NCBI GenBank assembly: GCA_902791625.1
Contig: CADAWN010000003.1
Coordinates: forward strand, 30,465-94,464
Direction: 5' to 3'
Length of the DNA stretch: 64,000 bases
Source of the DNA: an uncultured Erysipelotrichaceae bacterium
GTDB lineage: Bacteria > Bacillota_I > Bacilli_A > RF39 > UBA660
The position numbers were made by a program, and so were the translations under genes. Shown here in pieces: positions 2,734 to 20,791 of the stretch; the stretch's first letter is position 1; each line of letters starts with the position of its first letter. Under the pieces are notes generated by a model that saw only the letters and a program-made list of their open reading frames with translations, searched no databases and had not been told where the DNA came from.

Positions 2734-3947
2734 GAGATATATTAATCGTAGCTAAATTTTCTATGAAAGATATATTAAGAAAGAAATCTTTCATAGTATC
2801 TACAATAATAATATTATTATTAATAGTTGCTGGTTTTCAAATACCTAGAATAATAAAAAATTCTAAGTCATCAAATCCAAAAGTATTAATAGTAGATAAT
2901 GAAAACTTATTTGATAATCAATTAGGAGAATTAAATAATTTAAAATTAGATTATGAATTTGTAATTGAAAATAAAGATATAAAAGAAATTAAAAAAGAAA
3001 TTAATAAAGACAAGATAAAGAGTTCAATTATTGTTAATAAAAGTGAAGATGGAATTAAATTAAATTATGTAGTTAAAAATAAAATGTATGTAGAAAGAAT
3101 ACCTGATGATTTATTTACATCACTTACATCACTATATAAAAATGTTCAAATTGGTAAACTTAATTTAAGTGATGAACAAATAAAAGCAATCTCACCATCA
3201 TTTGAATTTGAAATAATTCAATCAGAAAAAGAAACAAATGAAGGTAATGTTGTTCTAGCAATGGCAATAAGTATGTTACTATACTTTGGAGTTTATTTCT
3301 TCGCATATCAAATATCTACATCTATAACAACAGAAAAAACATCAAAGATTATGGAAACACTTGTTACTTCAACTTCACCTAGATCAATAGTTTTAGGAAA
3401 AACATTAGGTCTTGGAATAGTAGGAATAATTCAAGTTATTCTTATAGGAGGAGTGGCTTATATAACAGCTATTAATTCATTTGATGCAAGTACAATTAAT
3501 AGTTTACTTGATATGAGTAAGATTACACCATTCCTTGGATTTATTATATTAATATACTTTATATTTGGATATTTAGTATATTCACTATTATATGCCTTAA
3601 CAGGTTCTACTGTATCAAAACCAGAAGATGTACAATCAGCTAATACTCCACTTGCAATAATAAGTTTAGCAGGATTCTATTTATCATATTTTTCAATGAT
3701 GAATCCAACAAGTGCATTAAATAAATATGCAGCAATCATTCCAATTTCATCACCATTCTGTATGCCTTGTAGAGTAATGATGGGATTATCTAGTACAAAA
3801 GAAATAATACTTTCATTAAGCGTATTACTTCTTACTATATTATTAGTAGCTAAAGTAGCTATAAAAGTTTATTCAAGTGCTATATTAAATTATGGTACTA
3901 AATTATCATTTAAAGATATCTTCAAAATGTTTAAATCTAAAGATTAG
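2730..3947 (+). CDS. ABC-2 type permease (YhaP/NatB-like)
   Basis: N-terminal TM, extracellular domain, several C-terminal TMs, EKTSKIMETL motif; ATGA overlap with the ATPase. Confidence 0.85.
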   Translation: MRDILIVAKFSMKDILRKKSFIVSTIIILLLIVAGFQIPRIIKNSKSSNPKVLIVDNENLFDNQLGELNNLKLDYEFVIENKDIKEIKKEINKDKIKSSIIVNKSEDGIKLNYVVKNKMYVERIPDDLFTSLTSLYKNVQIGKLNLSDEQIKAISPSFEFEIIQSEKETNEGNVVLAMAISMLLYFGVYFFAYQISTSITTEKTSKIMETLVTSTSPRSIVLGKTLGLGIVGIIQVILIGGVAYITAINSFDASTINSLLDMSKITPFLGFIILIYFIFGYLVYSLLYALTGSTVSKPEDVQSANTPLAIISLAGFYLSYFSMMNPTSALNKYAAIIPISSPFCMPCRVMMGLSSTKEIILSLSVLLLTILLVAKVAIKVYSSAILNYGTKLSFKDIFKMFKSKD

Positions 3948-3958
3948 GAGGAATCCAT

Positions 3959-5500
3959 ATGTATATTAATAATAAAATATTAATCGGTAAAAACGATGAA
4001 CAAGAACTATTCATATTACCTAATATGGCTAATAGGCATGGTATTATAACTGGAGCATCTGGTTCTGGTAAAACTATAACTTTAAAAGTCATGGCAGAAG
4101 GGTTTTCTGATTGTGGTGTACCAGTATTCTTAGCTGATGTTAAAGGTGATTTAGCTGGATGCGCAGTTGAAGGTGTACCTAATGAAAATGTAGAGTCAAG
4201 ACTACAAAAACTAGGAATTGAAGGATTTGATTATAAGAAATTCCCTGTAAGATTTTGGGATTTATATGGTATGAGAGGTCATAATGTAATGGCTAAAGTA
4301 TCAGATATTGGTCCTGAAATATTATCTATTATGTTAGGACTTTCAGAAGCACAAGAAGGAACATTAGCAATCGCATTTAGAGTAGCTGAAGACGAAAATA
4401 TGCCTCTAGTAGATTTAAAAGACTTACGTGCACTTCTACAATATATTGGAGATAAAAGAAATGATTATACATTAAAGTATGGTAATGTCGCATCTCAAAG
4501 TGTAGGTGTTATTCAAAGAAGCTTATTAACACTTGAAAATCAAGGAATAGCTAATTTCTTTGGAGAACCAGCACTTGATATTAATGATTTCTTAATAAAA
4601 TCAGAAGATGGAAGAGGAACAATTAATATTTTAGATGCAGTTGAACTATTTAAAAGTCCAGATTTATATGCATCATTCCTATTATGGATGTTATTAAAAC
4701 TTTATAATACATTACCAGAAGTAGGAGATGTAGATAAACCAAAAATTGTATTCTTCTTTGATGAAGCACACCTATTATTTAAAGATATGCCATCATATAG
4801 ATTAAAGAAGATTACTCAAATAGTTAAACTAATTAGATCTAAGGGTATTGGACTATACTTTATTTCTCAAGCTCCTAACGATATACCAGATGAAATTAGT
4901 GCTCAGCTTGGTAACCGTGTTCAACATACCCTAAGAGCTTATACTCCAATTGAAATTAAAAATGTTGATGCAGCTGCTAACTCATTTAGAGAAAATCCTA
5001 AATTTGATACAAAAAAAGCAATATTAGAATTAGGAATAGGTGAAGCTCTTATTAGTTTCCAAAATGAAAAAGGTGAACCTAATATAGTAGAAAAAGCTAC
5101 TATCTTACCACCTCAAAGTATGATGGGAACAATAGATGATATGACTAGAAATAAAGTCATTAATAATAGTTCCTTAATTGGGAAATATGATGAAAAAATA
5201 GATAATGAATCAGCTTATGAAAAAATAGAAAAATATACACAAGAAAAACAAGCAGAAATTGAAGCTGCAAAACAACAAAAATTAGAAGAACAACAAGCTA
5301 AAGAAGAAGAAAAATTAAGAAAAGAACAAGAAAAAGAAGAATTAAGACAAAAGAGAGAAGAAGAAAGAGAACAAAAAAGATTAGAAAAAGAAAAAAATAA
5401 TTCTTATGAAAATAAACTAAAGAGAAAAGTTATTAACAAAGCAGAAAATAAAATTATAGACAAAGGATTAACTAGTTTATTTAGAAGACTATTTAAATAG
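3959..5500 (+). CDS. HerA-like P-loop ATPase (YjgR/DUF853 family)
   Basis: NRHGIITGASGSGKT, DVKGDL, FFFDEAH, QLGNRVQH motifs; C-terminal coiled coil. Confidence 0.88.
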   Translation: MYINNKILIGKNDEQELFILPNMANRHGIITGASGSGKTITLKVMAEGFSDCGVPVFLADVKGDLAGCAVEGVPNENVESRLQKLGIEGFDYKKFPVRFWDLYGMRGHNVMAKVSDIGPEILSIMLGLSEAQEGTLAIAFRVAEDENMPLVDLKDLRALLQYIGDKRNDYTLKYGNVASQSVGVIQRSLLTLENQGIANFFGEPALDINDFLIKSEDGRGTINILDAVELFKSPDLYASFLLWMLLKLYNTLPEVGDVDKPKIVFFFDEAHLLFKDMPSYRLKKITQIVKLIRSKGIGLYFISQAPNDIPDEISAQLGNRVQHTLRAYTPIEIKNVDAAANSFRENPKFDTKKAILELGIGEALISFQNEKGEPNIVEKATILPPQSMMGTIDDMTRNKVINNSSLIGKYDEKIDNESAYEKIEKYTQEKQAEIEAAKQQKLEEQQAKEEEKLRKEQEKEELRQKREEEREQKRLEKEKNNSYENKLKRKVINKAENKIIDKGLTSLFRRLFK

Positions 5501-5509
5501 GAGAAGTAT

Positions 5510-6124
5510 ATGAGTGAAGATTTAAAAAGCATGGTTGGAGAAGAAGAAAAGATAATGTGGGAAGGAAGACCTTCAAAAAAATGTTTTATACTAGAAAGCA
5601 TATTTAATCCATTATTACCTTTCGCACTTCTTTGGGCAATTATAGACTTTGGTTTTATTGGTGGTTTCTCTAAGTTTGGTACTGGTGGAATGGGCTTCTT
5701 TTTAGTACCTTTCTTTCTAATTCATTTAATGCCTGTATGGTTATATCTATTTGGAGTAATTTTCTCATTTAGAAGATATAAAAATACATATTATATAGTT
5801 ACTGATAGAGGAATGTATTTATCTGAAGGAATGTTTTCTAAAAAATATGATATGAAACCATTCGCAGAACTTTCTCATGTTAACCTAAAGAGAGGTATAT
5901 TTGATCAAATGTTAAATTGTGGTGATGTTGAAGCTACAACTAGTCAAATGAATCAAAATGGTATACCAGTATCAATTACATTTAAAAGTATCAGTAATTA
6001 TGATGAAGTATATAAGATTGTTAAGAAATTACAAATTGATATATACACTGATGTTATGTATCCAAATGATAAAAGACCAAAAGAAAATCATGGATATAAA
6101 ACTGAATATAAAGGAGAAGAGTAA
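5510..6124 (+). CDS. membrane protein with bacterial PH domain
   Basis: WEGRP start, two TM helices, then YIVTDR...RGIFDQMLNCGDV typical of bPH domains. Confidence 0.65.
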   Translation: MSEDLKSMVGEEEKIMWEGRPSKKCFILESIFNPLLPFALLWAIIDFGFIGGFSKFGTGGMGFFLVPFFLIHLMPVWLYLFGVIFSFRRYKNTYYIVTDRGMYLSEGMFSKKYDMKPFAELSHVNLKRGIFDQMLNCGDVEATTSQMNQNGIPVSITFKSISNYDEVYKIVKKLQIDIYTDVMYPNDKRPKENHGYKTEYKGEE

Positions 6125-6189
6125 TCTTCTCTTTTATTATTTTAAAAAATAGTATATAATACTACTAGTTCATGAAGGAGGTGTTTATT

Positions 6190-8136
6190 ATGTTTAAATT
6201 AGTATCTAAATACTTGCCATCTGGAGATCAACCAGAAGCAATTAAAAATTTAGTAGAAGGTATTAAAGAAGGAAAAAGAGATCAAGTTCTATTAGGTGCA
6301 ACAGGTACAGGTAAAACATTTACTATTGCTAATGTTATAAAAGAAGTTAATAAACCTACTTTAGTACTGGCACATAATAAAACACTTGCTGGACAACTTT
6401 ACTCAGAGTTAAAGGAATTATTCCCGGAAAACAGAGTAGAATACTTTGTCTCATATTATGACTATTATCAACCAGAAGCATATGTTCCTTCAACTGATAC
6501 TTATATAGAAAAAGATTCATCTATTAATGATGAAATAGATGAGTTAAGACATGCTGCAACAAGTGCTCTTTTATCAACAAGAGATGTAATAGTAGTATCA
6601 AGTGTTTCTTGTATATATGGTATTGGAGAAGTAGAAGAGTATAAAAATAAAATGTTAAGCCTATCAGTAGGAGAAGAAATAAGTCGTGATAAAGTATTAA
6701 TAAAGTTAGTAGATATGCTTTATGAAAGAAATGACTTAGATTTTAAAAGAGGAACATTTAGAGTAAGAGGAGATATACTTGAAATAATTCCCGCATCTCA
6801 AGATAAAACAGGTTATAGAATAGAATTCTTTGGAGATGAAATAGATAGAATTAGTGAAATAGATGTTTTAACTGGAAGTATTATTTCAAATAAAAAGAAC
6901 TTAAGTATCTTTCCAGCTAGTCACTTTGTAATAGGTGATGAAAAATTAAAAGAAGCAATTAAAAGAATAAAAGAAGAAGAAATAGAAAGAGTTAAATATT
7001 TTAAAGAACATAATAAACCACTTGAAGCAGAGCGCATTGAACAAAGAACTAATTATGATATTGAGATGTTAGAAGAAACTGGTTTTTGTACAGGAATAGA
7101 AAACTATTCTAGACATATGGCAGGACGTAAAGAAGGAGAAACTCCTACTACTTTAATGGATTTCTTTGGTGATGATTATCTACTTGTTATAGATGAATCA
7201 CATGTTACTCTTCCTCAAGTTAGAGGTATGTACAATGGAGATAGAGCTAGAAAGCAAAACTTAGTAGATTTTGGATTTAGACTTCCAAGTGCTCTTGATA
7301 ATAGACCACTCAAGTTTGATGAATTTGAAAAAAAGATAAATCAAGTTATTTATGTTTCAGCAACTCCTGGGGATTATGAATTGGAAAAAACTAATAATCA
7401 TTTTATTGAACAAATAATTAGACCTACTGGACTTCTTGATCCAACGATAGAAGTAAGAAAAACAAAAGGACAAATAGATGACTTAATTGGAGAGGTCAAA
7501 GAACGCATAAAATGTAATGAGAGAACACTTATTACAACTTTAACCATTAGAATGGCTGAAGAATTAACTAATTATTTAAAAGAATTAGATATTAAAGTAG
7601 CTTATCTTCATTCAGAAGTTAAGACACTAGAAAGAATGCAGATTATTCATGATTTAAGAACAGGTAAATATGATGTATTAGTTGGAATTAACTTACTAAG
7701 AGAAGGTTTAGATATTCCGGAAGTGTCATTAATCGCAATACTTGATGCAGATAAAGAAGGTTTCTTACGCAGTACTAGAAGTTTAATTCAAACAATAGGT
7801 AGATGTGCAAGAAATAGTAAGGGACACGTTATTATGTATGGAGACAAAATGACTGATAGCATGGACGAAGCTATAAAAGAGACAGCCAGACGTAGACAAA
7901 TACAAGAAAAGTATAATCTAGAACATGGTATAACCCCTAAAACAATACAAAAAGAAATAAGAGATGTAATTAGTAATGTTGATACAACTAAGGATAAAAA
8001 ACAAAAAATAAGTAAGAAAGAACTTCTAAAAACTATTAATGATATAGAGGAAGAAATGAGAGAAGCAGCTCGTAATTTAGACTTTGAAAGAGCAATGGAA
8101 CTAAGGGATATATTATTTGAATTAAAGTCGGAATAA
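6190..8136 (+). CDS. uvrB: excinuclease ABC subunit B
   Basis: [29 protein letters not shown]-terminal UVR domain; ATG 6190 after AAGGAGGTG. Confidence 0.98.
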
Positions 8137-8161: not shown

Positions 8162-8207
8162 ATTGTAGATACGATATAATACAATTAGAATAAAGTAGGT
8201 GTAGGAT

Positions 8208-11200
8208 ATGAATATATATATATTGGATAGTGAAAAACTAGTTAAGTATCAATTACCGACAAAGGTAGAAGAAGATTATTCTATTAGTTATAAACCTTAT
8301 GGTTATACTAATACTTTTTTAATTACTTTAGAAGCAAGAAATGGTAACTGGATAATTAAAAGTAATGGTAGTGTTAATGTAATGAATAATGAAATGATTA
8401 TGGACGAATCATTTTTACAAAATTACTATATATATCCACTTAAAATGGTTGGGGTAAATAGACTTATTTATGTCTATGCGATGCCTGCAGAAAATGATTG
8501 TATATTCAGACTTTCTTTAGATAAGATTAATCAAATAACAGTTGGTAATGCTGCTAACAATAATATTAGTTATAATAATCCTGCACTAGGAGACTTTCAA
8601 CTAGTAATAAATAAAAAAGAAAACTTTTGGGAAATAGATTTAGTAAATGTTAAGTTTGCAGTATATATCAATAATAATCTATTAAAGACAAAAACAAGAC
8701 TATTAAAATATGGTGACGTAATATTTATATATGGACTTAAAATAATAGTCATGAAGGACTTTATTGAAATAAATAATCCAAATAATCAAGTAGGAGTAAA
8801 TGCAATGTTTGCTTACAATGATAGTGATGATAATACTAACTATCAAGAAGTAAGTGAAGAAGATAAAAATGTAGATTTATATTCAGAAGATGATTACTTC
8901 TTTCATACACCAACTATAAAAGAGGTACTAGAAGAGCAAGAAATAAATATAGATACTCCACCTGGAAATCAAAATGATAGAAATGGATCTATGCTAATGA
9001 CTGTAGGTATGTCTATTACAATGGTTTCTAGTACTTTCATGATGGGTTATTCTGTATTTAATCAGTTAATTAGTGGAAAAGCTTCAATGAAGGAAAGTAT
9101 ACCACAAATAGTAATGCTAGTAGCTATGATAATAGGAACATTGTTAATACCAACAATTGTTAGACGAATTGAAAATAGAAAAAAGAAAAAGATGGAAAAG
9201 AAAAGACAAGTTTTATTTTCAAAGTATTTAGATGAGAAAGAAAAAGAAATAACTGCTACTATTAGTAATCAAAAGAACATAATTAATACTAATTCACCAA
9301 CATCTGAGCAATGCAAGGAAATAATATCGAAGAAAGGCAGATTGTTCTGGAGTAGAGAATTAAGTGATAATGATTTTTTGGATATTAGGCTTGGAATAGG
9401 AACTATAAAATCAAAAGTGAAAATACTAGCACCTGAACAACATTTTGAATTAGAGACAGATAATTTAATGCAAAAAGTATATGATTTATGTGAAAAATAT
9501 AAGATGACATCTGATTTCCCAATATGCATAAATTTAACAAAAAAGAAAGTAAGTGCTATAGTATGTGGTGGAGAAGAAAAACAAAAATATGCAGATTCAG
9601 TAATAATGCAATTAATTACATTACATAGTCCGATTGATTTAAAATTATGCTTTATCACTAATGAGGATAATTATAGTAAATGGGAATATGTAACTATGTT
9701 ACCACATTGTTGGAATGCTACAAAAGACACAAGATTATTTGCTACCAATATAGATGAGGCTAAGGAACTATCTGAAAAGCTAGAAGAAGTATATAAATTA
9801 AGACGAGATGGTGACAAGAATAAATCTGAAGAGCAAACAGAAGAGAAAAAAGTAGAAGAAGGTAAAGAATATAGTAAATATGAAGATTATTATTTATTAA
9901 TAGTAGATGATTTCAAAATAGCTAAGAATCTACAAATAATTAATGACATTCAAAATTCTCAAAATAATTATGGATTCTCAATATTATATTTAGGTAATAA
10001 TTTAAAACAATTGCCAGCTGCTTGTACAAGCTTTGTTGAAGTTGGATCATTAGATGGAGCATATTTAGAAAAAAGTATGTCATCCGATAATCAATTATCA
10101 TTTAAAATTGAACCATTTAATAATGAAAACATGATGGGTTATAGTGTTACAACTGCTAATATACCTACAATAACTAAGAATGGTGCTATGGAATTACCAC
10201 AATCACTTAGCTTTTTAGAAATGTATGGTGTATCTAAAATTGAACAATTAAATATTAGCAATAGATGGAAAAATGATAGTCCGGTAAGTACTTTAGCCAC
10301 ATCAATTGGTGTTCAAGAAGATGGTGAATTATTTAAGTTAAATTTACATGAAAAATATCATGGACCACATGGGTTAATTGCTGGATCTACTGGATCAGGT
10401 AAATCTGAATTTATTATTACGTATATTTTATCAATGGCAGTAAACTATCATCCATATGAAGTACAATTTGTTTTGATTGATTATAAGGGTGGTGGACTTG
10501 CAGGAGCATTCGAAAATAAAGAAACTGGTGTTAGCTTACCACATTTAACTGGTACAATTACAAACTTAGACGTTGCAGAGATGAATCGTACTTTAGTATC
10601 TATAAAAAGTGAATTACAAAGAAGACAAAGAGTATTTAATGAAACAAAAGATAAGCTAGGAAAAAGTACTATTGATATTTATAAATATCAAAAATATTAT
10701 CGTGATGGATTAATAGAAGATCCTATGTCACATTTATTCATTATTTCAGATGAGTTTGCGGAACTAAAACAACAACAACCTGAATTTATGGATGAATTAA
10801 TAAGTATAGCTCGTATAGGACGTAGTTTAGGAGTTCATTTAATACTTGCAACACAAAAGCCAAGTGGTGTAGTAAATGATCAAATTTGGTCTAACTCTAA
10901 GTTTAAGGTATGTCTTAAAGTACAAAGTAGATCAGACAGTATGGAAATGATAAAAAGACCAGAAGCTGCAAGTATAAAAGAAGCAGGAAGATTTTATTTA
11001 CAAGTAGGTTATGATGATTTATTTCAATTAGGACAATCAGCTTGGGCTGGTGCTAAATATATTCCTTCAGACAAAATATTGAAGAAAGTAGATGATTCAA
11101 TCAATTTCATTTCACATACAGGAGATAAATACAAAAATATAGAAGACTTAGTGACTGTAGATACTACTCAAGATTATGGTGATCAATTAACTAATATTGT

Positions 11201-12842
11201 TAAATATATTTGTGATTTAGGTAAAAAAGAAGAAATTAAAACATCTAAATTGTGGTTGGATGCTATACCAGAAAAAATCTTTGTTCAGAATTTAAAAACA
11301 AAATATAATTATCAACCAGAACCATATAATATTACACCTGTAATTGGTGAGTATGATGATCCAGCTAATCAGAAACAAGGTATTTCTTTGCTAAAAATAA
11401 GTGGAGGAAATACATTGATATTTGGTATAGGTGGAAGTGGTAAAGAGAATCTACTAAATACAATAATATATTCATGCATTACTGAACATAGACCAGAAGA
11501 GATTAATTTCTATATTGTTGATTGTGGAGCAGAAACATTAAAAGTATTTAACAAAATACCACATGTAGGAGCGGTAGCAACTACAGGAGAAGAAGAGAAA
11601 ATATATGGAATATTTGATTATATAGTTGAAGAAATAGATAGAAGAAGAAATCTATTTGCTGATTTCGGAGGTAGTTACAAGGAATATATTGCAAATTCAA
11701 ATGAAAAACTTCCTCTTATAACAGTAATAATTAACTACTATGATACATTTGAAGAAAATTATGGAAAATTAGCTGATAGTTTAACTACTTTATATAGAGA
11801 TGGTAGTAAATATGGTGTTATGTTTATTATTACAGCCAATTCTTCAAACTCTATAACTTCTAGAAATAGACAACATTTTAATAATTTCATCACTTTAAAA
11901 CTATCTGATGATACAAAATACATGGATGCGATAGATGCACCAAAAGGATTAATACCTAGTAACTTCTTTGGTAGAGGTTTAATAAAAGTTGATAAGTCTA
12001 TTTTTGAGTTTCAGACGGCTTTATTTGCAGAAAGAAACCAAATGGTTGCTGGAATTAGACAATTAACTGAGCAAATGTCAAAAACATATTCATATAGTGC
12101 TAAGCAAATTAATGTTTTACCATCAGAAGTAAATATAAGTATGTTTGATAATACAGAAAAATCTTTAGATAAATTACCAATCGGTTATTCAGAAAATAGT
12201 AAAGAACCATACTTCTATAATTTCACTATTAATAAGATTAATTCAATAGTGGCTAATGAAATGGATGATGACAAAATTTACTTCATTTTTGCACTTATTA
12301 ACTTATTGTCACACCTGGAAAAAACAAATATAACTTTGGTTGATTTTGCAAAAGTATATGATAGAAATTATGATAATGTAAAAGTTATAAATGAGGATTA
12401 TAATAAAGGTATAATTGAATTAAACAATGATTTCATCAAAAACAAAGAAGTCGATAGTAAAAATATTTGTATTATCTTAGGAATAGGTCAAATAAATGAA
12501 CAACTTGATTCTGGTTCAAAAGAAGTATTGCAACATTTTATTGAGAATATAAATACAATGGATAATGCTTCTATAATATTAATAGATACATATTATTCAT
12601 ATAAAAATATTCAACTTGAAAGTTGGTATATGACTAATGTAGATAAATCATATGGAATATGGTTAGGTACAGATGTAGGAAGTCAAGTGGCAATTAATAT
12701 AACTAATCTATCTACAGATGATAGAGAAAATGATTTCCCACAAATTGGATTTGCTGTTTCAAAAGGTACCAAAGAAACTATAAAATTTGTTATTGACAAG
12801 GGGGATGAAGAAAATGAAGAACAAAGTACTAGTACAAATTAG
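8208..12842 (+). CDS. essC: type VII secretion ATPase EssC (T7SSb, FtsK/SpoIIIE family)
   Basis: 1544 aa; N-terminal FHA-like region, two TMs, [53 protein letters not shown]; second ATPase domain GIGGSGKE; degenerate third domain. Confidence 0.95.
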   Translation: [1544 protein letters not shown]

Positions 12843-13068
12843 TGTACCTGAAATTAATGAAGAATATGATATATATCTTCCTGTTAATAGAACAATAGGA
12901 AATGTTATTAATCTTATATGCCATTCTATATATGAATTATCAAATGGTACTTTTAATGGTACCAACAAAACCTTTTTATATAATTCATTAACAGGTGAAA
13001 AATATTCATCTGAAGTATTAATTAGAAAGACAAATATTAGAAATGGCACAAGATTAATACTTATTTAG
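12814..13068 (+). CDS. esaB: EsaB/YukD ubiquitin-like T7SS protein
   Basis: 84 aa, YDIYLP...IRNGTRLILI ubiquitin-fold pattern; overlaps the essC 3' end; AAGGGGG RBS. Confidence 0.8.
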   Translation: MKNKVLVQISVPEINEEYDIYLPVNRTIGNVINLICHSIYELSNGTFNGTNKTFLYNSLTGEKYSSEVLIRKTNIRNGTRLILI

Positions 13069-13079
13069 GGGGAACTAAA

Positions 13080-14726
13080 ATGAAAATAAGTAATTTAAAA
13101 ATTTATATAACAGAGATAGGTCTTATTGCCAGTGCATTATGCACTGGCTGTACTTTAAGTACTAGCAGTACCAATAGTAATCAAATAGAAACAATAAAAG
13201 ATGTTTCTACTACAGAAACAACATCAACTTTTTCAGAATCTAGTAGTGATTATAGTTCAATTACTAATAGTGAAATTGATAATACAGAAGATAGTATAAA
13301 TGTAGATGAATTAAGTGAAAATGAAAAGTCATATCTCCAGAAAAAAAGCACAATAAATATAAGCTTTTCAAAAACTTTAGATATAATAAATAATACTGAT
13401 ATTAATTGTAAATACAATAATTTATTTGAAATAGATAAGGCATTACATATGTATAATTCATCTAAAATAGAAAATATTAATAATGTTGGTATTATAATTA
13501 ATAATAAGAAGGTTAATAAAGAAAAATTAAAAGAATCAATAATAAGAAATAGTAATAGTAATATTGATGGTGAAATATTAAATAAATGTGTTGATATTTT
13601 AAAAAATAATATAGACTATTTTTTGCAAGATAATAATATAAATATTAATAGATTAGAAAAAAAATTAGAACTTTTAAAAATAGAGGATAATACAGACTTT
13701 GCTTACGCTTATTATTCTCCGTCAAAAAACACATTAGCTATAAATCCAAGAAGTTTAAAAACTATTTCAAATCAAGAAAACTTATCTCTCGATGAGACTT
13801 ATGAAAGAATAGTAGGACATGAAACAAATCATCTATTGCAAGCGATAACAGAAAAAGAAATTAAAGATAATAATTATACTGAATGGTTCGGACCATGCAT
13901 TAAAAGTCCTAATTTAAAAGTTAATTCATTATATTGGGAATGGTATATTGAATCATCTGCTGAACAAATGATAGTAGAAAAAGGTAAATATGATTCTCCA
14001 CTTTTATATCAATTTGAAATAAATGCACTTGATGGTCTTAAAATTGCAACTTTATTTAATGATAAAAAAACAACAGATTTAGAAAGAATAAGTTTATCAA
14101 GCGATATAAATGAATTATATAAGTATTTTAATTGTAATACTGAATATGAAAAAAAAGAATTATTAGAACTATTTTATAAACTAAATTTGATATGTCAAGA
14201 TTCTTTCACTAGCTCATCAGCAGATTTCTACAATTATTATGAAGCTAAAAATGGTTATAGATTATTAGGTGAAGAAAAAGAAAAATTTTTATATAATGTT
14301 TGTACTTCTGTAGCTATGGATGAGGCTAAGTTATTCTATAAGAATTTGATTAATAATATATCAAATAAAGAATGTAAATTAGAAGATATACTTCACTTAA
14401 TATCAATAGAAGAAGATGAATTAGCAATAATTTTAAAAACAAATGTCAAAGAATATGAAGATGATTATACAAAATTTTTAGAAGCTTATATGAATATTCA
14501 AAAATCGTTCTTTGAAGAATTAAGTATATATTATGGAAAAACAAGTGAAGAAATTCAAGAAATATATGATAAATATCATATTTCAAGCCATCAAGATATA
14601 GAGTTATTAAAAGAAGAAAACAGTAATTATTATAAAAAAATGGAAGAGAATAGAAGCACACAAAAGTATTATAGTATAAACGTATTACAAAAATATAATA
14701 TACAAAAGAGTGTAAAGTTAAAGTAA
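13080..14726 (+). CDS. putative lipoprotein with zincin-like HExxH motif
   Basis: LCTGC lipobox-like signal, S/T-rich linker, GHETNH motif, downstream ESSAE. Confidence 0.55.
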   Translation: MKISNLKIYITEIGLIASALCTGCTLSTSSTNSNQIETIKDVSTTETTSTFSESSSDYSSITNSEIDNTEDSINVDELSENEKSYLQKKSTINISFSKTLDIINNTDINCKYNNLFEIDKALHMYNSSKIENINNVGIIINNKKVNKEKLKESIIRNSNSNIDGEILNKCVDILKNNIDYFLQDNNININRLEKKLELLKIEDNTDFAYAYYSPSKNTLAINPRSLKTISNQENLSLDETYERIVGHETNHLLQAITEKEIKDNNYTEWFGPCIKSPNLKVNSLYWEWYIESSAEQMIVEKGKYDSPLLYQFEINALDGLKIATLFNDKKTTDLERISLSSDINELYKYFNCNTEYEKKELLELFYKLNLICQDSFTSSSADFYNYYEAKNGYRLLGEEKEKFLYNVCTSVAMDEAKLFYKNLINNISNKECKLEDILHLISIEEDELAIILKTNVKEYEDDYTKFLEAYMNIQKSFFEELSIYYGKTSEEIQEIYDKYHISSHQDIELLKEENSNYYKKMEENRSTQKYYSINVLQKYNIQKSVKLK

Positions 14727-14741
14727 AAAATATTTAAAATG

Positions 14742-14770
14742 TTGAAATAGTAAATAAAAGGTGCTACTAT
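14742..14770 (+). promoter_or_regulatory. sigma-A promoter of the WXG100 pair
   Basis: TTGAAA-N17-TACTAT with extended TG. Confidence 0.6.
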
Positions 14771-14822
14771 AGTGATAGTAGAAGGGATTCTATTAATAGG
14801 AAAAATATGAGGAGGAAATGGT

Positions 14823-15167
14823 ATGCCAAATTTTAAACTTGATAATCAAAATATGACAATTCAAGATGCAACTTATGGTATTAGTAAAACTGGAATGGAG
14901 CAATATATCAATTCATTAAATGCTTCATTAATTGGTGATACAAAAAAGATACTAGAACAAGTAGAAGGTATTCAATCAGCAGTAGATGCAGGATGGAATG
15001 GTTCTGCAAAGGCCAGTTTCTTAAAATCATTGCAAGAATCAATAATAAAAGTAGAACAAGATCTTGATAAAGAAGAAGTAAGTTTGAGAAGAAGATTAGA
15101 TGAATTACAAGCTTCATATATTTATCAAGAAACACATATTGCAAAGGCTATTGATGAACAAAGATAA
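14823..15167 (+). CDS. WXG100-family T7SS substrate (EsxA-like)
   Basis: 114 aa helical, central WNG, C-terminal YxxxE (YIYQE), strong GAGGAGG RBS, T7SS context. Confidence 0.75.
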   Translation: MPNFKLDNQNMTIQDATYGISKTGMEQYINSLNASLIGDTKKILEQVEGIQSAVDAGWNGSAKASFLKSLQESIIKVEQDLDKEEVSLRRRLDELQASYIYQETHIAKAIDEQR

Positions 15168-15185
15168 TAAAGGAGGAAGTTTTAA

Positions 15186-15680
15186 ATGAAGACATGGTTT
15201 GAAGGTGCTGCTGCTGCACATGGAGATTTTAATGCAAATAAATTTGTAAATGATACAATTGAAAAAAGATCAGATACAAGAACAAAAGAAACTGAACAGT
15301 TTAATTGGACAGGAGGTATTACTGTAGTAGGAATTAATGCTCAAAAGATACCTGCTATGATTGAAGCAATTAATACTTATGTAAATAAAGTTAAAAATCA
15401 TTTAGATGGAATTAAACCAACAGCAGATGCAAATGGTGCATATAAGGGTGAAGAAGTACAAAAAGCAGTAGAAAACTACGTTAATAAAGTAAAAGAATAT
15501 TGTTTTAATTTAACAAGTCAATTAAGAGCATTTAACGATAAATTATCTGATATTGCAAGTGCATATGATAAGAATAAGAGAAAACTTGCTGAAAATATCA
15601 ATACTGATACAGGAAGTTATGCTGCTGGTACTGAATATAAAACTGGTACTAATGCTAATGGAGGAACAGTAGGACGTTAG
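15186..15680 (+). CDS. WXG100-like protein with N- and C-terminal extensions
   Basis: Helix-turn-helix core with YKG at the turn; co-transcribed with the WXG100 gene; strong RBS. Confidence 0.55.
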   Translation: MKTWFEGAAAAHGDFNANKFVNDTIEKRSDTRTKETEQFNWTGGITVVGINAQKIPAMIEAINTYVNKVKNHLDGIKPTADANGAYKGEEVQKAVENYVNKVKEYCFNLTSQLRAFNDKLSDIASAYDKNKRKLAENINTDTGSYAAGTEYKTGTNANGGTVGR

Positions 15681-15681
15681 T

Positions 15682-15709
15682 AAAAAACACTTTTAGGTGT
15701 TTTTTTTTT
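15682..15709 (+). terminator. intrinsic terminator
   Basis: AAAAACAC...GTGTTTTT hairpin plus long T run. Confidence 0.7.
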
Positions 15710-15728
15710 GCATTTTTTTTTATAATTA

Positions 15729-15757
15729 TTGAAAGAATAGAATAAATGTAGTATTAT
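15729..15757 (+). promoter_or_regulatory. sigma-A-like promoter of the small-gene operon
   Basis: TTGAAA-N17-TATTAT. Confidence 0.5.
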
Positions 15758-15775
15758 ATAATAAGATAGCGGGGT

Positions 15776-16126
15776 GTGCATGTGGGAAGTGTTAATTATT
15801 CATTTAGTTTAAATGAAATTGCTATTAATAATATTATATTAGATATTGATAACTATCAAAGGAATATTAAACAAATTTTAAATAGTATGGCAGATATATA
15901 CAAAGATCTATCAAACAATACTAACTACAATGGTAAACAAACATATTTAGCTAAAGCTAATACAGTTGCAGAAAATAATAAAATAATATGTATTAATTTA
16001 GATAATTACAAAGCTGATTTAAATAAAATAAAAACATTATATAAAAAAGCAAGTATTGATGCAGCAGATAAACTAAATAAAGATGCAAGAAATATGTATG
16101 TTGGTACTGAATATAGAAATAAGTAG
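15776..16126 (+). CDS. WXG100-like helical protein
   Basis: About 115 aa helical with central YNG; T7SS context; start may be GTG 15782. Confidence 0.5.
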   Translation: MHVGSVNYSFSLNEIAINNIILDIDNYQRNIKQILNSMADIYKDLSNNTNYNGKQTYLAKANTVAENNKIICINLDNYKADLNKIKTLYKKASIDAADKLNKDARNMYVGTEYRNK

Positions 16127-16131
16127 GTGTA

Positions 16132-16404
16132 ATGATGGAAGAAAACTTAACTCAAGTTATAGAAAAATATGAATACATAAAAACAAGAATGAATTATTAT
16201 AAAAACTATACACAGTACGCTTTAAATGATTTAAATAAAATTATACCTATATTAGAAAAAAATAGAGATTCTGTGTGCATAGGAAGTTATTTAAAAGAGT
16301 TAAAGGCAATAAGAGATAATATAAGTATAAATAGAAATAGAATTATTTATACGTTATTACCAGCTTTAGATATTAAATTAACACAACTAAGAAATCAGTT
16401 GTAG
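16132..16404 (+). CDS. small helical protein, putative T7SS accessory or substrate
   Basis: 90 aa amphipathic helices, AGGTG RBS, tight operon spacing. Confidence 0.45.
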   Translation: MMEENLTQVIEKYEYIKTRMNYYKNYTQYALNDLNKIIPILEKNRDSVCIGSYLKELKAIRDNISINRNRIIYTLLPALDIKLTQLRNQL

Positions 16405-16416
16405 GAGGTTGATAAA

Positions 16417-16698
16417 GTGAGTCAAATCATAATGAATACTGATAAAGTAAAGAGTGATGGACAATCTTTGATGAATTTATCAAAAAATCTAAATGAACAG
16501 CTTAATGGTCTTTTTAGAGTTTTAGAAAACTTAGATAAGATAGGAGCTTGGAAAGGTCAAGCTTCACTATTATATTCAAGCAAAGTAAAAATGGATAAAT
16601 CACAATACTATGCATTTAAAAATAGTGTATATAAAGATGGTAAAAATGCATTTGACGTTGCTTCTTACATGGAAACAGAAATGAGGAAGTTGATATGA
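16417..16698 (+). CDS. WXG100-family T7SS substrate
   Basis: 93 aa, MSQIIMNTDKV N-terminus, central WKG, C-terminal YxxxE (YMETE), GGAGGT RBS. Confidence 0.75.
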   Translation: MSQIIMNTDKVKSDGQSLMNLSKNLNEQLNGLFRVLENLDKIGAWKGQASLLYSSKVKMDKSQYYAFKNSVYKDGKNAFDVASYMETEMRKLI

Positions 16699-17000
16699 TA
16701 GTAAAATATGATAATAGTGCATTAATTAATAAAGTATTACCGGGAATAAATACTGCAAAAAGTAAAATCTCAACAAGTGAAATGTATAATATAAAAAGCA
16801 AGTGTCCAGATGATTTTAATTGTAGAAATTTATTAAATCAAGTACTAAATGAATTACAAGCAGATGTTACAAGATTAACAACACTTTCAAATAATATTAA
16901 TACCAAAAATACTAGAATAACAGTTATAGATAGAAATATTAAAAATAGACTTTATTCAGATAAAGTTGAGACAATGAAAATACAGAAACCGAAGATATAG
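16695..17000 (+). CDS. small helical protein, putative T7SS accessory or substrate
   Basis: 101 aa, ATGA-coupled to the WXG100 gene, helical hairpin pattern. Confidence 0.45.
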   Translation: MIVKYDNSALINKVLPGINTAKSKISTSEMYNIKSKCPDDFNCRNLLNQVLNELQADVTRLTTLSNNINTKNTRITVIDRNIKNRLYSDKVETMKIQKPKI

Positions 17001-17010
17001 GAGGAAAAGA

Positions 17011-17913
17011 ATGAAAAGGGAAATATTACCAATAGGTACAATTTGTGAATTAGATAATAGTAAAATAATAATGATTATAGGATATAAAAATATTTCAATA
17101 GATAATAAAAATATATCTATAAAAGATTATGTAGGAGTAAAATATCCAGAAGGAACTTTATCTACTGAAGAATATAAATTTGATAATGAGAATATAAAAT
17201 CAATATTATATATGGGTTATGTAGATGAAAAATTTGAGAATATAAAAGCTTTATTAAATGATGAAGTAGATTATGAAGAGAAAAAAATGGAATCTACATA
17301 TACATTTGATGAAAATGGAGTTATTACTTCTGAAACTAAAACACCAGTAAAGAATCCCTTCTCTGTGGAAGAACCAAAAGTAGAAAAATTAGATGAAGAT
17401 CCTGGTGATTGGCCAATATTTAAGAATATAGAATTTGATGAAAATGGTGTTGTTGTATCAGCAGAGGAGTATACGCCTTCCAATATACCAGATCAATCAG
17501 ATGTTTTAGGACCAAAATATCAATTTGATGAAAATGGAGTTATTATAGGTGTCGAAGATGAAGAAACACAAAATGAAAAAATAACATTAGTTAATGAGTC
17601 TGAACCAGTTTATGAGTTTGATGCAAATGGTGTTGTAGTAGGAGTAAAAGAAGAAGATTCTACTCAAGAAGAACAAACAGAAGCAAGTGAACCAGAATAT
17701 GAATTTGATGAAAATGGCATTGTTGTAGGAGTAAAAGAAAAAGAATCTGCTAAAGAAGAACAAACAGAAGCAAGTGAACCAGAATATGAATTTGATGAAA
17801 ACGGCGTTGTTGTAGGAGTAAAAGAAAAAGAACCTACTAAAGAAGAACAAAAAGATACAAGTGAACCAAAATATGAGTTTGATGAAAATGGAATGGTTAT
17901 AGGTGTAGAATAG
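17011..17913 (+). CDS. DUF4176-domain protein with long acidic repeat tail
   Basis: LPIGTICEL, IMIIGY, DYVGVKYPEG, FDNENIKSILYMGYVDE match the DUF4176 pattern; seven FD(E/A)NG motifs follow. Confidence 0.75.
   Translation: MKREILPIGTICELDNSKIIMIIGYKNISIDNKNISIKDYVGVKYPEGTLSTEEYKFDNENIKSILYMGYVDEKFENIKALLNDEVDYEEKKMESTYTFDENGVITSETKTPVKNPFSVEEPKVEKLDEDPGDWPIFKNIEFDENGVVVSAEEYTPSNIPDQSDVLGPKYQFDENGVIIGVEDEETQNEKITLVNESEPVYEFDANGVVVGVKEEDSTQEEQTEASEPEYEFDENGIVVGVKEKESAKEEQTEASEPEYEFDENGVVVGVKEKEPTKEEQKDTSEPKYEFDENGMVIGVE
17601..17910 (+). repeat. 87-bp (29-codon) coding tandem repeat, about 3.5 copies
   Basis: GAACCA..TATGA.TTTGATG units begin at 17602, 17689, 17776, 17863. Confidence 0.9.
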
Positions 17914-17971
17914 AAAACATTTAATTGTTTTCTTTTTTTTATCATGATATAATATGCTACAGGTGATGTAT

Positions 17972-20791
17972 ATGGATAAAATTATTATTAAAGGTGCTAG
18001 AGAGAATAATTTAAAAAATATTAATCTTGAACTTCCAAAGAACAAATTAATTGTTATGACTGGAGTATCTGGTTCTGGTAAAAGTAGTTTAGCTTTTGAT
18101 ACTATTTATGCTGAAGGTGAAAGAAGATATATGGAAAGCCTTTCTGCTTATGCAAGACAATTCTTAGGTAATAGTGAAAAGCCTGATGTAGATTCTATTG
18201 AAGGATTATCTCCAGCTATATCGATTGATCAAAAAACTACTAATAACAATCCTCGTTCTACAGTAGGAACAGTAACTGAAATATATGACTATTTAAGACT
18301 TGTTTTTGCACGCGTTGGAGTGCCATTCTGTCCTAATCATAATATACCTATAACTAGTCAAAGTGTAGAAGAAATGACTAATAAAATAATGGAATATCCT
18401 ATGGGAACCAAACTAATTATTATGTCACCAGTAGTACACGGAGAAAAAGGAACTCATAAAGATTTATTAGATGACCTTAGAAGAGATGGATATATTAGAG
18501 TTAGAGTTAATGGTGAAATGATTGATTTAAGCGAGAATATATCATTAGAAAAAAATAAAAAAGATAAAATTGATGTAGTTATTGATAGAATAGCATTAAA
18601 AGAAGATTCAAGATCTCGCCTTTTTGAAGCAATAGAACAGGCTACAAAACTTTCTAATGGAAAAGTAGTAGTACAAATCTTAGGATATGAGAAAAAAGAA
18701 TTAGTTTTTTCTGAACAATATGCCTGTCCATATTGTGAGTTTTCTCTTCCAGAATTAGAACCTAGAATGTTTAGTTTTAACGCACCATACGGAGCTTGTC
18801 CTGATTGTAATGGATTAGGAGTAAAACTCCAAATAGATGAAGATATTCTTATACCGGATACTAATAAATCAATTCAAGAAGGTTGTATTAAAACATTAAC
18901 TGATGATCCAGAAGGAATGGATTATTTAAAATTAGAATGTTTATGTAAACATTATAAGATAAAGATGGATATACCATGGAAAAAACTAAAAAGACGCGAA
19001 CAAGAGTATATTTTATATGGAAGTGACGAAATAATTCATTTTGAATATTCATCTAGAGGCGGAACAAAATATAATAAAAAAGAGTTCTATGAAGGAATTA
19101 TCAATAATTTAGAAAGAAGACATATGGAAACTAGCTCAACATGGGTTAGAGAATGGTTAGATAATTATATGATAGAACATACTTGTGATACATGTCATGG
19201 AGCAAGATTGAATGATTCAGTCTTACAAGTAAAATTAGGTGGAAAAAATATATATGAAGTAACAGAAATGTCTATTAGTGAATTAATTCCATTTTTTGAA
19301 AATTTAAAACTATCAAAGGAAAAGATTGAAATAGCTAAACTTGTTATTAAAGAAATATTAGATAGACTACACTTTTTGTCTAATGTAGGATTAGATTATC
19401 TAACGTTATCTAGGAGCGCTGGTACTTTATCAGGAGGAGAAGCTCAACGTATAAGACTTGCTACCCAAATAGGTTCACATCTTACTGGCGTTTTATATGT
19501 TTTAGATGAACCTAGTATTGGACTTCATCAAAGAGATAATGATAGATTAATTAAATCATTACTTGAAATGAGAGATCTAGGTAATACATTAGTAGTAGTT
19601 GAACACGATACTGATACTATGCTTGCAGCTGATTATTTAGTAGATATAGGACCTGGAGCTGGAGATAAAGGTGGATATGTAGTAGCAGCTGGAACTCCAG
19701 AAGAAGTAATGAAAAATGAAAAGAGCCTTACGGGTATGTATTTAACAGGTAAAAAATGTATTGATACACCAAAAATAAGAAGAAAAGGTAATAAAAAATT
19801 CTTAAAAATTAGAGGCGCAAAAGAAAATAATTTGAAAAATATAGATATAGATATACCACTAGGAACATTTACTTGTGTAACAGGTGTTTCAGGTAGTGGA
19901 AAGTCATCTCTTATAAATGAAGTACTAGTAAAAGCATTATCACAAAAGATATATGGAAGTAAAGAAAAACCTGGTAAGTATGATAAAATACTAGGAATTG
20001 ATAATATAGATAAAATAGTAGCAATATCTCAAAATCCAATAGGAAGAACACCTAGAAGTAATCCAGCAACCTATACAGGTGTATTTGATGATATAAGAGA
20101 ATTATTTACAACTACAAAAGAATCTAAAATGTATGGATTTGAAAAAAATAGATTTTCATTTAATGTAAAAGGGGGAAGATGTGAAGCTTGTCGAGGTGAT
20201 GGAGTTAAGAAAATAGAGATGCATTTCTTACCTGATGTATATGTACCTTGTGAAGTATGCCATGGTACTCGTTATAATACAGAGACATTAAACATAAAAT
20301 ATAAGGGTAAAAACATTGCAGAAGTACTTGATATGAGAGTATCTGAAGCATTAGAATTCTTTGAAAATATTCCTAAGATAAAAAGAAAACTTCAAGTAAT
20401 TGAGGATGTAGGACTTGGATATATTAAATTAGGACAAAGTGCTCCTACTTTATCAGGTGGAGAAGCAGAACGTGTAAAACTTGCTAAAGAACTACAAAAA
20501 GTATCTACTGGAAAGACTTTATATGTACTTGATGAACCAACAACAGGACTTCATACTGATGATATAAAACGCTTACTTGCTATTTTACAAAAAATAGTAG
20601 ATAATAAAGATACAGTAATAGTAATTGAACACAACTTAGATGTCATTAAGACAGCTGACTATATAATAGATTTAGGACCTGAAGGTGGTAACCTTGGTGG
20701 AGAAGTTATCGCATGTGGTACACCAGAAGAAATAATTAAGAATCCTAAATCATATACAGGAGAATATTTAAAGAGAATAATGAAAAAATAG
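17972..20791 (+). CDS. uvrA: excinuclease ABC subunit A
   Basis: GARENNLKN, two GVSGSGKSS Walker A motifs, LSGGEA signatures, CxxC zinc fingers. Confidence 0.98.
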   Translation: MDKIIIKGARENNLKNINLELPKNKLIVMTGVSGSGKSSLAFDTIYAEGERRYMESLSAYARQFLGNSEKPDVDSIEGLSPAISIDQKTTNNNPRSTVGTVTEIYDYLRLVFARVGVPFCPNHNIPITSQSVEEMTNKIMEYPMGTKLIIMSPVVHGEKGTHKDLLDDLRRDGYIRVRVNGEMIDLSENISLEKNKKDKIDVVIDRIALKEDSRSRLFEAIEQATKLSNGKVVVQILGYEKKELVFSEQYACPYCEFSLPELEPRMFSFNAPYGACPDCNGLGVKLQIDEDILIPDTNKSIQEGCIKTLTDDPEGMDYLKLECLCKHYKIKMDIPWKKLKRREQEYILYGSDEIIHFEYSSRGGTKYNKKEFYEGIINNLERRHMETSSTWVREWLDNYMIEHTCDTCHGARLNDSVLQVKLGGKNIYEVTEMSISELIPFFENLKLSKEKIEIAKLVIKEILDRLHFLSNVGLDYLTLSRSAGTLSGGEAQRIRLATQIGSHLTGVLYVLDEPSIGLHQRDNDRLIKSLLEMRDLGNTLVVVEHDTDTMLAADYLVDIGPGAGDKGGYVVAAGTPEEVMKNEKSLTGMYLTGKKCIDTPKIRRKGNKKFLKIRGAKENNLKNIDIDIPLGTFTCVTGVSGSGKSSLINEVLVKALSQKIYGSKEKPGKYDKILGIDNIDKIVAISQNPIGRTPRSNPATYTGVFDDIRELFTTTKESKMYGFEKNRFSFNVKGGRCEACRGDGVKKIEMHFLPDVYVPCEVCHGTRYNTETLNIKYKGKNIAEVLDMRVSEALEFFENIPKIKRKLQVIEDVGLGYIKLGQSAPTLSGGEAERVKLAKELQKVSTGKTLYVLDEPTTGLHTDDIKRLLAILQKIVDNKDTVIVIEHNLDVIKTADYIIDLGPEGGNLGGEVIACGTPEEIIKNPKSYTGEYLKRIMKK

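Follow-up and report, generated by a model that had tools for sequence, protein, structure and literature searches.

A type VII secretion cluster without recognisable EssB, EssA and EsaA between uvrB and uvrA in an uncultured ruminant-gut bacterium

In the study of type VII secretion systems (T7SSs) of the Bacillota, it has long been asked which components the transport of a folded helical dimer through the membrane and the cell wall requires. The question is raised again by a group of ten genes located between uvrB and uvrA in the small genome of an uncultured ruminant-gut bacterium, where a membrane ATPase of the EssC type is accompanied by a ubiquitin-like protein and a set of small helical proteins. 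The window, i.e. the whole stretch of DNA that was analysed (64,000 nucleotides, C3:30465-94464), is part of a metagenome-assembled genome (MAG) of 1.53 Mb in 61 contigs, with a GC content of approximately 26%, a completeness of 93.5% and a contamination of 6.3%; a genome search gave 6 transpeptidase and 5 Mur-ligase matches, which indicates a walled host. It is likely that this island constitutes an intact and, by prediction, probably functional T7SS cluster whose subtype dispenses with EssB, EssA and EsaA. The initial annotation of the window had read it either as a stripped-down T7SS subtype composed of EssC, EsaB and WXG proteins or as a system with its remaining parts dispersed. The absence of the partners bears out the first of these readings and the findings that would have overturned it were not made, but the cluster is not merely stripped down, as it also encodes six families of small proteins and a probable metallopeptidase. 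The named parts are all present, and a second EssC locus and effector-type loci lie elsewhere in the genome.

The extent (about 9.7 kb) and gene order of the island were confirmed. The interval contains ten intact open reading frames (ORFs), all on the plus strand, which overlap or are separated by gaps of at most 97 bp, and its GC content is slightly lower (0.22-0.28). The features of the island and its two flanks are as follows:

6172..8136, +, uvrB, left flank (UvrB_inter 117 bits, UvrB, Helicase_C, UVR), 84% identical to the uvrB of the same genus
8208..12842, +, EssC1, EssC/TsxC-type membrane ATPase, 1544 aa, with a weak N-terminal FHA domain
12814..13068, +, TsxB, ubiquitin-like protein (EsaB/YukD-type by predicted fold), 84 aa, overlapping the end of essC by 29 nt
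13080..14726, +, candidate gluzincin-like zinc metallopeptidase, exported or membrane-anchored, 548 aa
14823..15167, +, WXG hairpin protein, 114 aa, fam3, with WNG at residue 58
15186..15680, +, partner helical protein, 164 aa, fam4, with YKG at residue 86; LXG/WXG superfamily
15776..16126, +, small helical protein, 116 aa, weakly fam5-like
16132..16404, +, small helical protein, 90 aa, weakly fam6-like, starting 5 nt past the preceding gene
16417..16698, +, WXG100-like protein, 93 aa, fam1, with WKG at residue 45
16695..17000, +, partner helical protein, 101 aa, fam7, overlapping the preceding gene by 4 nt
17011..17913, +, DUF4176 domain (residues 5-74) with a repeat tail of YEFDENGVVVGV units
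17601..17891, 87-bp tandem repeat inside the DUF4176 gene, 3.3 copies (TRF score 456)
17954..20791, +, uvrA, right flank (UvrA_inter, UvrA_DNA-bind), 88-89% identical to the uvrA of the same genus

The identification of the ATPase held. EssC1 scored 944.2 bits against TIGR03928, the NCBI model of T7SSb EssC (cut-off 778.4), and both the Walker A motif (GSTGSGKS, residue 726) and the Walker B motif (residue 843) of its D1 domain are intact. Its hydrophobic segment comprises residues 296-314, and an FHA domain was detected at 22.2 bits (cut-off 20.7) when the first 240 aa were scanned alone. EssC1 is 41-43% identical to the proteins of the nearest clade and 25% identical to canonical EssC, and no relative above 45% identity was found among the relatives' genomes and the one-genome-per-species contigs.

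The following gene encodes a protein of 84 aa from the ATG at 12814, or of 93 aa from an alternative TTG start at 12787. Neither Pfam nor NCBIfam matched this protein. The Pfam YukD model matched 3 of the 19 members of its family (best E 0.027), ubiquitin-like hints were likewise weak, and the family profile recovered no YukD or ubiquitin among the PDB sequences, the best hit (E 0.14) being an unrelated enzyme. An AlphaFold model computed from the 19-sequence alignment (pLDDT 93.2) adopts a beta-grasp fold, whose best Foldseek matches are the ubiquitin-like domain of EccD in ESX-5 (7npt_D8, E 9.3e-6), ubiquitins and YukD of the B. subtilis T7b core unit (9qks_A, E 1.1e-4). The product is of the EsaB/YukD type by its modelled fold, not by sequence, and on the fold alone the initial call was right.

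The canonical partners were then sought in the whole host genome, with a B. subtilis control that passed the cut-off in each search. No match was obtained there for EssB (PF10140 and TIGR03926), LXG (PF04740) or, with the Pfam model, YukD; the best EssA match (TIGR03927) reached 21.6 bits against a cut-off of 32.45 and fell inside a 610-aa frame, while the best for EsaA (TIGR03929) had an E value of 0.12. The statement that EssA, EssB, EsaA and LXG are unrecognisable could thus be extended from the window to the genome, and for the first three also to a sample of 101 genomes of the family (one per genus, 0.8-1.7 Mb). EssC exceeded the cut-off in 37 of these 101 genomes; EssB, EssA and EsaA (N-terminus) did so in none. 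Six family genomes gave sub-threshold EsaA-like matches of 47-70 bits, and just two of the six have EssC. A class-level relative (locus L044) shows the canonical order WXG100 (80.7 bits)-725aa-138aa-73aa-YukC (171 bits)-EssC, and therefore the searches are able to detect canonical genes in the kin of the host. Neither canonical essA, essB or esaA elsewhere in the genome nor, in the loci of relatives, a complete ancestral cluster of which the island might be a decayed remnant was found. The absence of EssB, EssA and EsaA is a trait of the lineage and not a result of decay of the island.

TsxB follows EssC through the same sample. Its profile was found in 39 of the 101 family genomes, comprising all 38 with EssC (at E<=1e-50) and one of the 63 without it, and in every two-copy genome the number of TsxB matches equals that of EssC matches. 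A large and diverse gut family that keeps EssC and TsxB without EssB, EssA and EsaA amounts to a natural deletion experiment.

The six small proteins had been described as helical or WXG100-like. All six ORFs belong to conserved families, but only two of the six gave WXG100 matches, which were weak and did not reach the cut-off (Pfam 19.6 bits against 27.3; TIGR03930 E 0.006-0.011, with E 0.0063 for the 93-aa protein); the other four had no match in Pfam and NCBIfam. With profiles of fam1 and fam3-fam7 built without the window's own proteins, the 114-aa protein was recovered by fam3 (E 3.1e-15), the 164-aa protein by fam4 (E 2e-15), the 93-aa protein by fam1 (E 1.5e-14) and the 101-aa protein by fam7 (E 3.2e-9). 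The W-x-G motif is invariant in 25 of 25 fam3 sequences, and fam4 keeps Y-K-G, one of its members matching DUF6507 (25.8 bits) and, weakly, LXG and WXG100; one fam5 member has a weak WXG100 match (23.2 bits). The genes are arranged as three tight pairs (114+164, 116+90 and 93+101 aa). A complex predicted for the 114-aa and 164-aa proteins scored 0.77, compared with 0.00 for the best of 3 controls; the runs agreed in at least 76% of contacts, with a partner pLDDT of at least 60. Among solved complexes, 116 of 157 attain this score, as do 2 of 215 mismatched pairs; the counts hold only roughly here because our own alignments were used for the prediction, and resemblance to solved WXG100 dimers may lift the score. 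The last gene of the island was correctly assigned to DUF4176 (PF13780), the match at residues 5-74 reaching 58.8 bits (cut-off 25); DUF7776 scored 27 bits, at its cut-off. Fused to it is a tail of 220 aa, made up of repeats that differ in number from one sample to the next.

The 548-aa protein had been called a lipoprotein. A hydrophobic helix at its N-terminus precedes a disordered linker rich in Ser and Thr, and the protein is probably exported or anchored, but its Cys motif is a misfit. The lipobox consensus is L-[AS]-[GA]-C after the signal peptide; the Cys region of this protein reads ...LIASALCTGCTLS, with the usual residues at -3 to -1 present at neither Cys, so that "exported or anchored" is the safer label. 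Its relatives number 11 among 5.8 billion proteins, including full-length ones at 88% and 67% identity. Neither this protein nor fam8, a family of EssC-linked proteins of about 470 aa, matched Pfam and NCBIfam. In members of fam8 a short head on the cytoplasmic side leads into a single membrane helix, and the outer domain contains HExxH (21/21); many representatives, like the 548-aa protein, begin directly with the membrane helix. This family, for which there is no Pfam model, comprises 598 representatives at E<=0.001 among 1.84 billion, and HExxH is present in 104 of the 104 representatives of 400-600 aa. It was found in 5 of the 101 family genomes, all five of which carry EssC.

Alignment of the family of the 548-aa protein with fam8 by hhalign gave a probability of 89.6% (E 1.9e-6) over 117 columns, the last of which lie in the HExxH helix, compared with 0.6% for an unrelated control alignment. 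In the 548-aa protein this motif is HETNH (residues 247-251), and in the merged alignment of 107 sequences H247, E248, H251 and E291 are the sole invariant columns (107/107). Gluzincins are defined by HExxH and a downstream Glu as the third metal ligand, and the pattern of these four residues is what we take to be the gluzincin signature. A model computed with the merged alignment has a pLDDT of 82.5, mostly above 90 from residue 80 on; the single-sequence model in the Atlas reached 0.54, and Atlas rows serve as leads only. A VIA structure search (all-against-representatives) with the model was led by M1, M4, M9, M30 and M36 peptidases (Z 6-8.2), with M1 aminopeptidases, thermolysin and collagenases among the leading matches, while Foldseek returned only a local match to selecase (probability 0.82). 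The gene lies directly after TsxB, the position of fam8 in several loci of the sister clade described below. Taken together, the alignments and the model argue with good probability that the 548-aa protein is a divergent member of an EssC-linked, outward-facing family of zinc metallopeptidases.

The neighbourhood of EssC was surveyed in 93 loci taken from relatives and one-genome-per-species contigs. TsxB is present in 79 of them, in 64 as the immediate next gene, and no further membrane protein family is kept beside EssC, except fam8 (21 loci). In a tree of 91 EssC sequences (FastTree LG, rooted on canonical L044), the window EssC groups with five other sequences (6-tip clade, support 1.0), and the sister of this clade (support 0.995) has 22 tips. 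The loci of the 22-tip clade carry EssC, TsxB and, in conserved order, six small families (fam5, 3, 4, 6, 1 and 7), one family being absent in one locus, and 21 of the 22 carry fam8 despite shifts of position and strand; the exception ends 1.2 kb upstream of EssC. One locus of this clade has its gene set bounded by secG, rnr and smpB. Tandem EssC or duplicates of the small set (fam3, fam4 and fam5 twice) were seen in loci L071 (EssC starts at 9707 and 16978) and L119, which suggests local amplification of the module.

The host genome itself holds a second EssC locus on contig C28 (L009, 3191-9658), between rplM-rpsI and spoIID. Downstream of EssC2 (1537 aa, 1048 bits, FHA E 2e-14) come a ubiquitin-like gene of 84 aa and two small genes for helical proteins; EssC2 is 41-42% identical to EssC1, and the two belong to different, well-supported clades. 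The locus is syntenic in four genomes of the same genus and in others. Contamination was considered as the origin of the second EssC and is unlikely, given this synteny and the 88-89% identity of the window's uvrA to that of the genus. At the start of the C28 locus are two genes, one holin-like (112 aa) and one M23-like without a signal (219 aa), a pair missing in the corresponding loci L029 and L032.

This genome also holds at least two effector-type loci, identified with profiles. The one on contig C7 (L156, 3946-10872, minus strand) encodes a 412-aa protein, a WXG100 protein (41.7 bits), a second WXG-like protein, proteins of 140, 1200 and 86 aa and a DUF4176 protein (182 aa). The one on contig C17 (L157, 4295-8123) encodes a WXG100 protein (33.5 bits), proteins of 106, 171, 276 and 478 aa and a DUF4176 protein. 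Contig C6 carries a lone DUF4176 gene. No Pfam toxin domain was recognised in the large C7 and C17 proteins; the 1200-aa protein, for which Pfam gave no match, is a possible polymorphic toxin whose targeting domain escapes recognition. The C17 locus is situated directly upstream of uvrC (8174-9937). Together with the island between uvrB and uvrA, this means that two T7SS-related insertions are situated next to excision-repair genes, which may reflect either chance or shared regulation, e.g. by DNA damage.

The insertion site was compared with that in relatives. The initial annotation had described uvrB and uvrA as adjacent in B. subtilis and many Bacilli; the island does split them, but they lie within 1.5 kb of each other in only 9 of 24 other genomes. 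In the same genus the gap comprises about 100 bp (G003), one ORF (G002 and G001) or three genes (G004), and in other genera one gene (G014) or six genes (G008), with no EssC or other T7SS gene in any of these gaps (loci L150-L155). The differing cargo makes the gap a variable spot, and it looks like an insertion hot spot (0, 1, 3 or 6 genes), with the island specific to the host species among those sampled: within the 5 genomes of the genus, only this species has it at uvrB-uvrA. Terminator-like sites were more numerous than expected (7 versus 2.0), and since none is located at either border of the island, the uvrB-uvrA region may be one transcription unit.

The island is stable and occupies the same site in independent samples. 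Nineteen runs from the gut of cattle, sheep and goats contain at least half of its words; 14 studies account for the 20 holders, and one of these studies is a possible source. In run X3 a 16.6-kb contig extends from uvrB through the whole island to uvrA, with 24 differences over 11.2 kb; it skips 174 bp (2 x 87) between 17683 and 17858, an in-frame repeat difference in the DUF4176 gene. Contigs of X7 bridge uvrB and EssC and span 10870-17713. Read joints that skip large parts of the island were set aside, as they have only 20-24 letters on one side and are attributable to chance or other organisms.

How does such a cluster relate to the systems already described? Under the broad definition of a T7SS as TsxA + TsxB + TsxC (PMC11217815), the corresponding parts of the island are its WXG-type hairpin proteins, its ubiquitin-like protein and its EssC. 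With T7SSb (S. aureus Ess; B. subtilis Yuk) it shares an EssC with FHA, an EsaB/YukD protein (by fold) encoded by a free gene beside EssC, small WXG-type proteins and a DUF4176 gene. It differs from T7SSb in having no EssB/YukC, EssA/YueC or EsaA/YueB, in the genome as in the 101 relatives, and in having three non-identical small pairs where T7SSb has one EsxA, to which a metallopeptidase gene is added. For EsxA itself, the copies in the island remain at 19.6 bits against 27.3, and true WXG100 genes are those on contigs C7 and C17. In B. subtilis, YukC belongs to the YukB/YukC/YukD membrane core, and in the first T7SSb core structure to be solved the pseudokinase YukC/EssB is part of the channel scaffold (PMC12637312). 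DUF4176 proteins stabilise LXG toxins (PMC12482557); the DUF4176 domain of the island, likewise in a T7SS locus and over the cut-off, has no LXG toxin beside it.

Garrett, Higginson and Palmer (2024) distinguish T7SSa-j, all of which have TsxC and TsxA and nearly all TsxB, each with its own accessories (PMC11217815). The plan of T7SSc-T7SSj, a common TsxA/TsxB/TsxC set plus subtype accessories, is also that of the island; T7SSg is similarly simple (A1, A2, B, C, L), non-identical WXG pairs occur in T7SSe and T7SSg too, and two subtypes can share a genome (PMC11217815). The accessories themselves differ. By Pfam, the island encodes no TsxD kinase, TsxF PPM phosphatase, TsxJ FHA (DUF6382-FHA), TsxI Ig-like protein, TsgL beta-propeller, AAA+ TsfV or EspG-like TsxG. 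A Pfam search confined to the ten proteins of the island and to the C28 locus gave no match to the accessories of T7SSd/e/f/j. TsgC of T7SSg is without FHA, whereas EssC1 has one (PMC11217815), and neither of the marks of T7SSg (the TsgL DUF5050 beta-propeller and adjacent Tad pilus genes) was found by Pfam in the island or its flanks. No metallopeptidase component is named in the main text of PMC11217815, a survey based on RefSeq; the close relatives found here, in contrast, nearly all bear titles that mark them as uncultured or metagenome-assembled genomes. The island fits none of the ten published subtypes, T7SSa-j, and we read it as an undescribed subtype, a variant of a known machine. In the open-access literature, no T7SS in this lineage, no EssC-linked metallopeptidase and no subtype beyond T7SSj was found.

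Mycosin (MycP) is a subtilisin-like serine protease of the actinobacterial T7SSa, membrane-anchored on the outer face. The 548-aa protein would resemble it as a membrane-anchored outer-face protease in a type VII cluster, a likeness of presumed role only, whereas as an HExxH...E zinc enzyme it has no sequence relation to MycP. MycP is named as a membrane component of T7SSa (PMC11217815, PMC12637312).

A mechanism compatible with this gene set can be outlined. EssC1 would form the membrane channel and the motor through its own lateral contacts. Oka et al. describe direct contacts between YukB subunits, which make an EssB-free ring conceivable by analogy; according to their results, YukD acts as a clamp on the FHA and DUF regions of YukB and enhances YukC binding (PMC12637312). 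TsxB might in the same manner dock on the FHA/DUF region of EssC1 and stabilise it, as YukD does on YukB. The three gene pairs are expected to form helical-hairpin heterodimers similar to EsxA/EsxB, which would be exported substrates or co-secreted targeting partners, and the DUF4176 protein could act as a cytoplasmic chaperone. On the outer face of the membrane, the putative metallopeptidase may process exported proteins or open the wall locally, a role comparable to that of mycosin in T7SSa with no relation in sequence. As to its origin, the island is conceivably a second system added to the variable uvrB-uvrA gap beside the genus's own EssC2 system, with its kin in a clade mostly of other families.

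A more general possibility, put forward tentatively, is that this is a naturally minimal machine, in which an EssC hexamer with a ubiquitin-like clamp is the entire membrane apparatus family-wide and one branch, to which the island belongs, recruited a membrane-anchored zinc metallopeptidase to the outer face. If so, EssB, EssA and EsaA would be lineage-specific additions rather than requirements of type VII export, and the recruited metallopeptidase would be a convergent counterpart of the mycobacterial serine protease mycosin.

Several points count against the preferred reading. The Walker A motif of D2 in EssC1 reads GKE, not GK[ST], and two of the small proteins match their families weakly (116 aa to fam5, E 1.4e-5; 90 aa to fam6, E 7.8e-4). 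The family searches test sequence likeness, and partners unlike EssB, EssA or EsaA are beyond their reach. The MAG is incomplete and contaminated, so that a gene could be lost from the assembly or the two EssC loci could represent two strains; genomes of the same genus, however, likewise hold 2-3 EssC matches. For the metallopeptidase, the structural Z values of 6-8.2 are in a range that the VIA search itself rates as middling, with 8.2 as the maximum, and Foldseek of the model against PDB gave no match at E<=0.001. Its link to fam8 comes from profile-profile comparison, motifs and the model, profile-to-sequence searches being empty: fam8 profiles of 21 and 138 sequences, used against the window proteins with filters off included, did not match the 548-aa protein, and the A3 profile had no match in the host genome. 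Because the loci of the five nearest EssC relatives mostly lack a metallopeptidase gene, as does the C28 type, the enzyme is an accessory part rather than a core one.

Other explanations were weighed against the same data. Partners that are not recognised because they are not homologous might fill the roles of EssB, EssA and EsaA from elsewhere in the genome and be shared by both EssC loci, in which case the system would not be minimal. This is unlikely, although new T7SS subtypes each have accessories of their own and neighbourhood analysis can miss parts (PMC11217815), and although searches by sequence likeness were applied to a genome that is 93.5% complete: the genus-wide EssC2 locus, set among housekeeping genes, has only TsxB and two small genes, fam8 (21 loci) is the only membrane family kept by EssC in the 93 loci, and the genomes comprise just 0.8-1.7 Mb. 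The two EssC loci in one small genome, the 2-3 EssC matches in other members of the genus and the many small substrate-like genes of the island would also suit a specificity module, i.e. a variant EssC with its substrates that is not autonomous and relies on the EssC2 system. Staphylococci reportedly carry essC variants with variant downstream genes, which such a module would resemble. We regard this dependence as very improbable, as the island has its own full-length EssC (with intact D1) and its own TsxB, EssC1 and EssC2 are 41-42% identical and in separate clades, TsxB and EssC numbers are equal in two-copy family genomes, and the EssC2 locus has no extra machinery to share. Finally, the island could be what is left, decaying or silent, of a cluster gained by horizontal transfer. 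This would account for the restriction to one species among the genus's 5 genomes and the slightly lower GC (0.22-0.28), yet it is hardly credible in view of ten intact, tightly packed ORFs with catalytic and fold-defining residues kept, near-identity in cattle, sheep and goat gut (24 differences per 11.2 kb, the sole length change being the in-frame 174 bp) and a 548-aa protein with full-length relatives at 88% and 67% identity.

It is possible, if rather doubtful, that the metallopeptidase is a passenger, a Sec-exported enzyme without a type VII role. It has only 11 relatives among 5.8 billion proteins and its own N-terminal export signal, the nearest EssC clade and C28-type loci mostly have no such gene, and profile-to-sequence searches give no link to fam8. 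Set against these points are the location of the gene directly after TsxB, like fam8 in several sister-clade loci, the persistence of fam8 next to EssC in 21 of 22 loci although its position and strand vary, the presence of EssC in 5 of 5 fam8-positive family genomes, and the hhalign probability of 89.6% versus 0.6% for the control.

Such a cluster is compact enough to be rebuilt in a laboratory host, with ten genes, or four in the C28 type. It also brings forward fam8 (598 representatives, without a Pfam model) as a new candidate accessory part of T7SSs. That genomes of 0.8-1.7 Mb devote space to as many as two such systems, with effector loci in addition, points to contact-dependent competition or host interaction in the rumen or gut.

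Some observations concern the surroundings of the island. No Rfam family was found between 5500 and 21000, and a promoter scan (80 sites versus 92.8 expected) was uninformative. Upstream of uvrB (1837-6124) are genes for an ABC-type ATPase (298 aa), a 405-aa protein, a HerA_C helicase-like protein (513 aa, 618 bits) and a bacterial PH-domain protein (204 aa). Nothing corresponding to the HerA_C-like and PH-domain genes was seen in six related uvrB-uvrA regions, and the genes at 1837-6124 may be another variable, defence-like insert.

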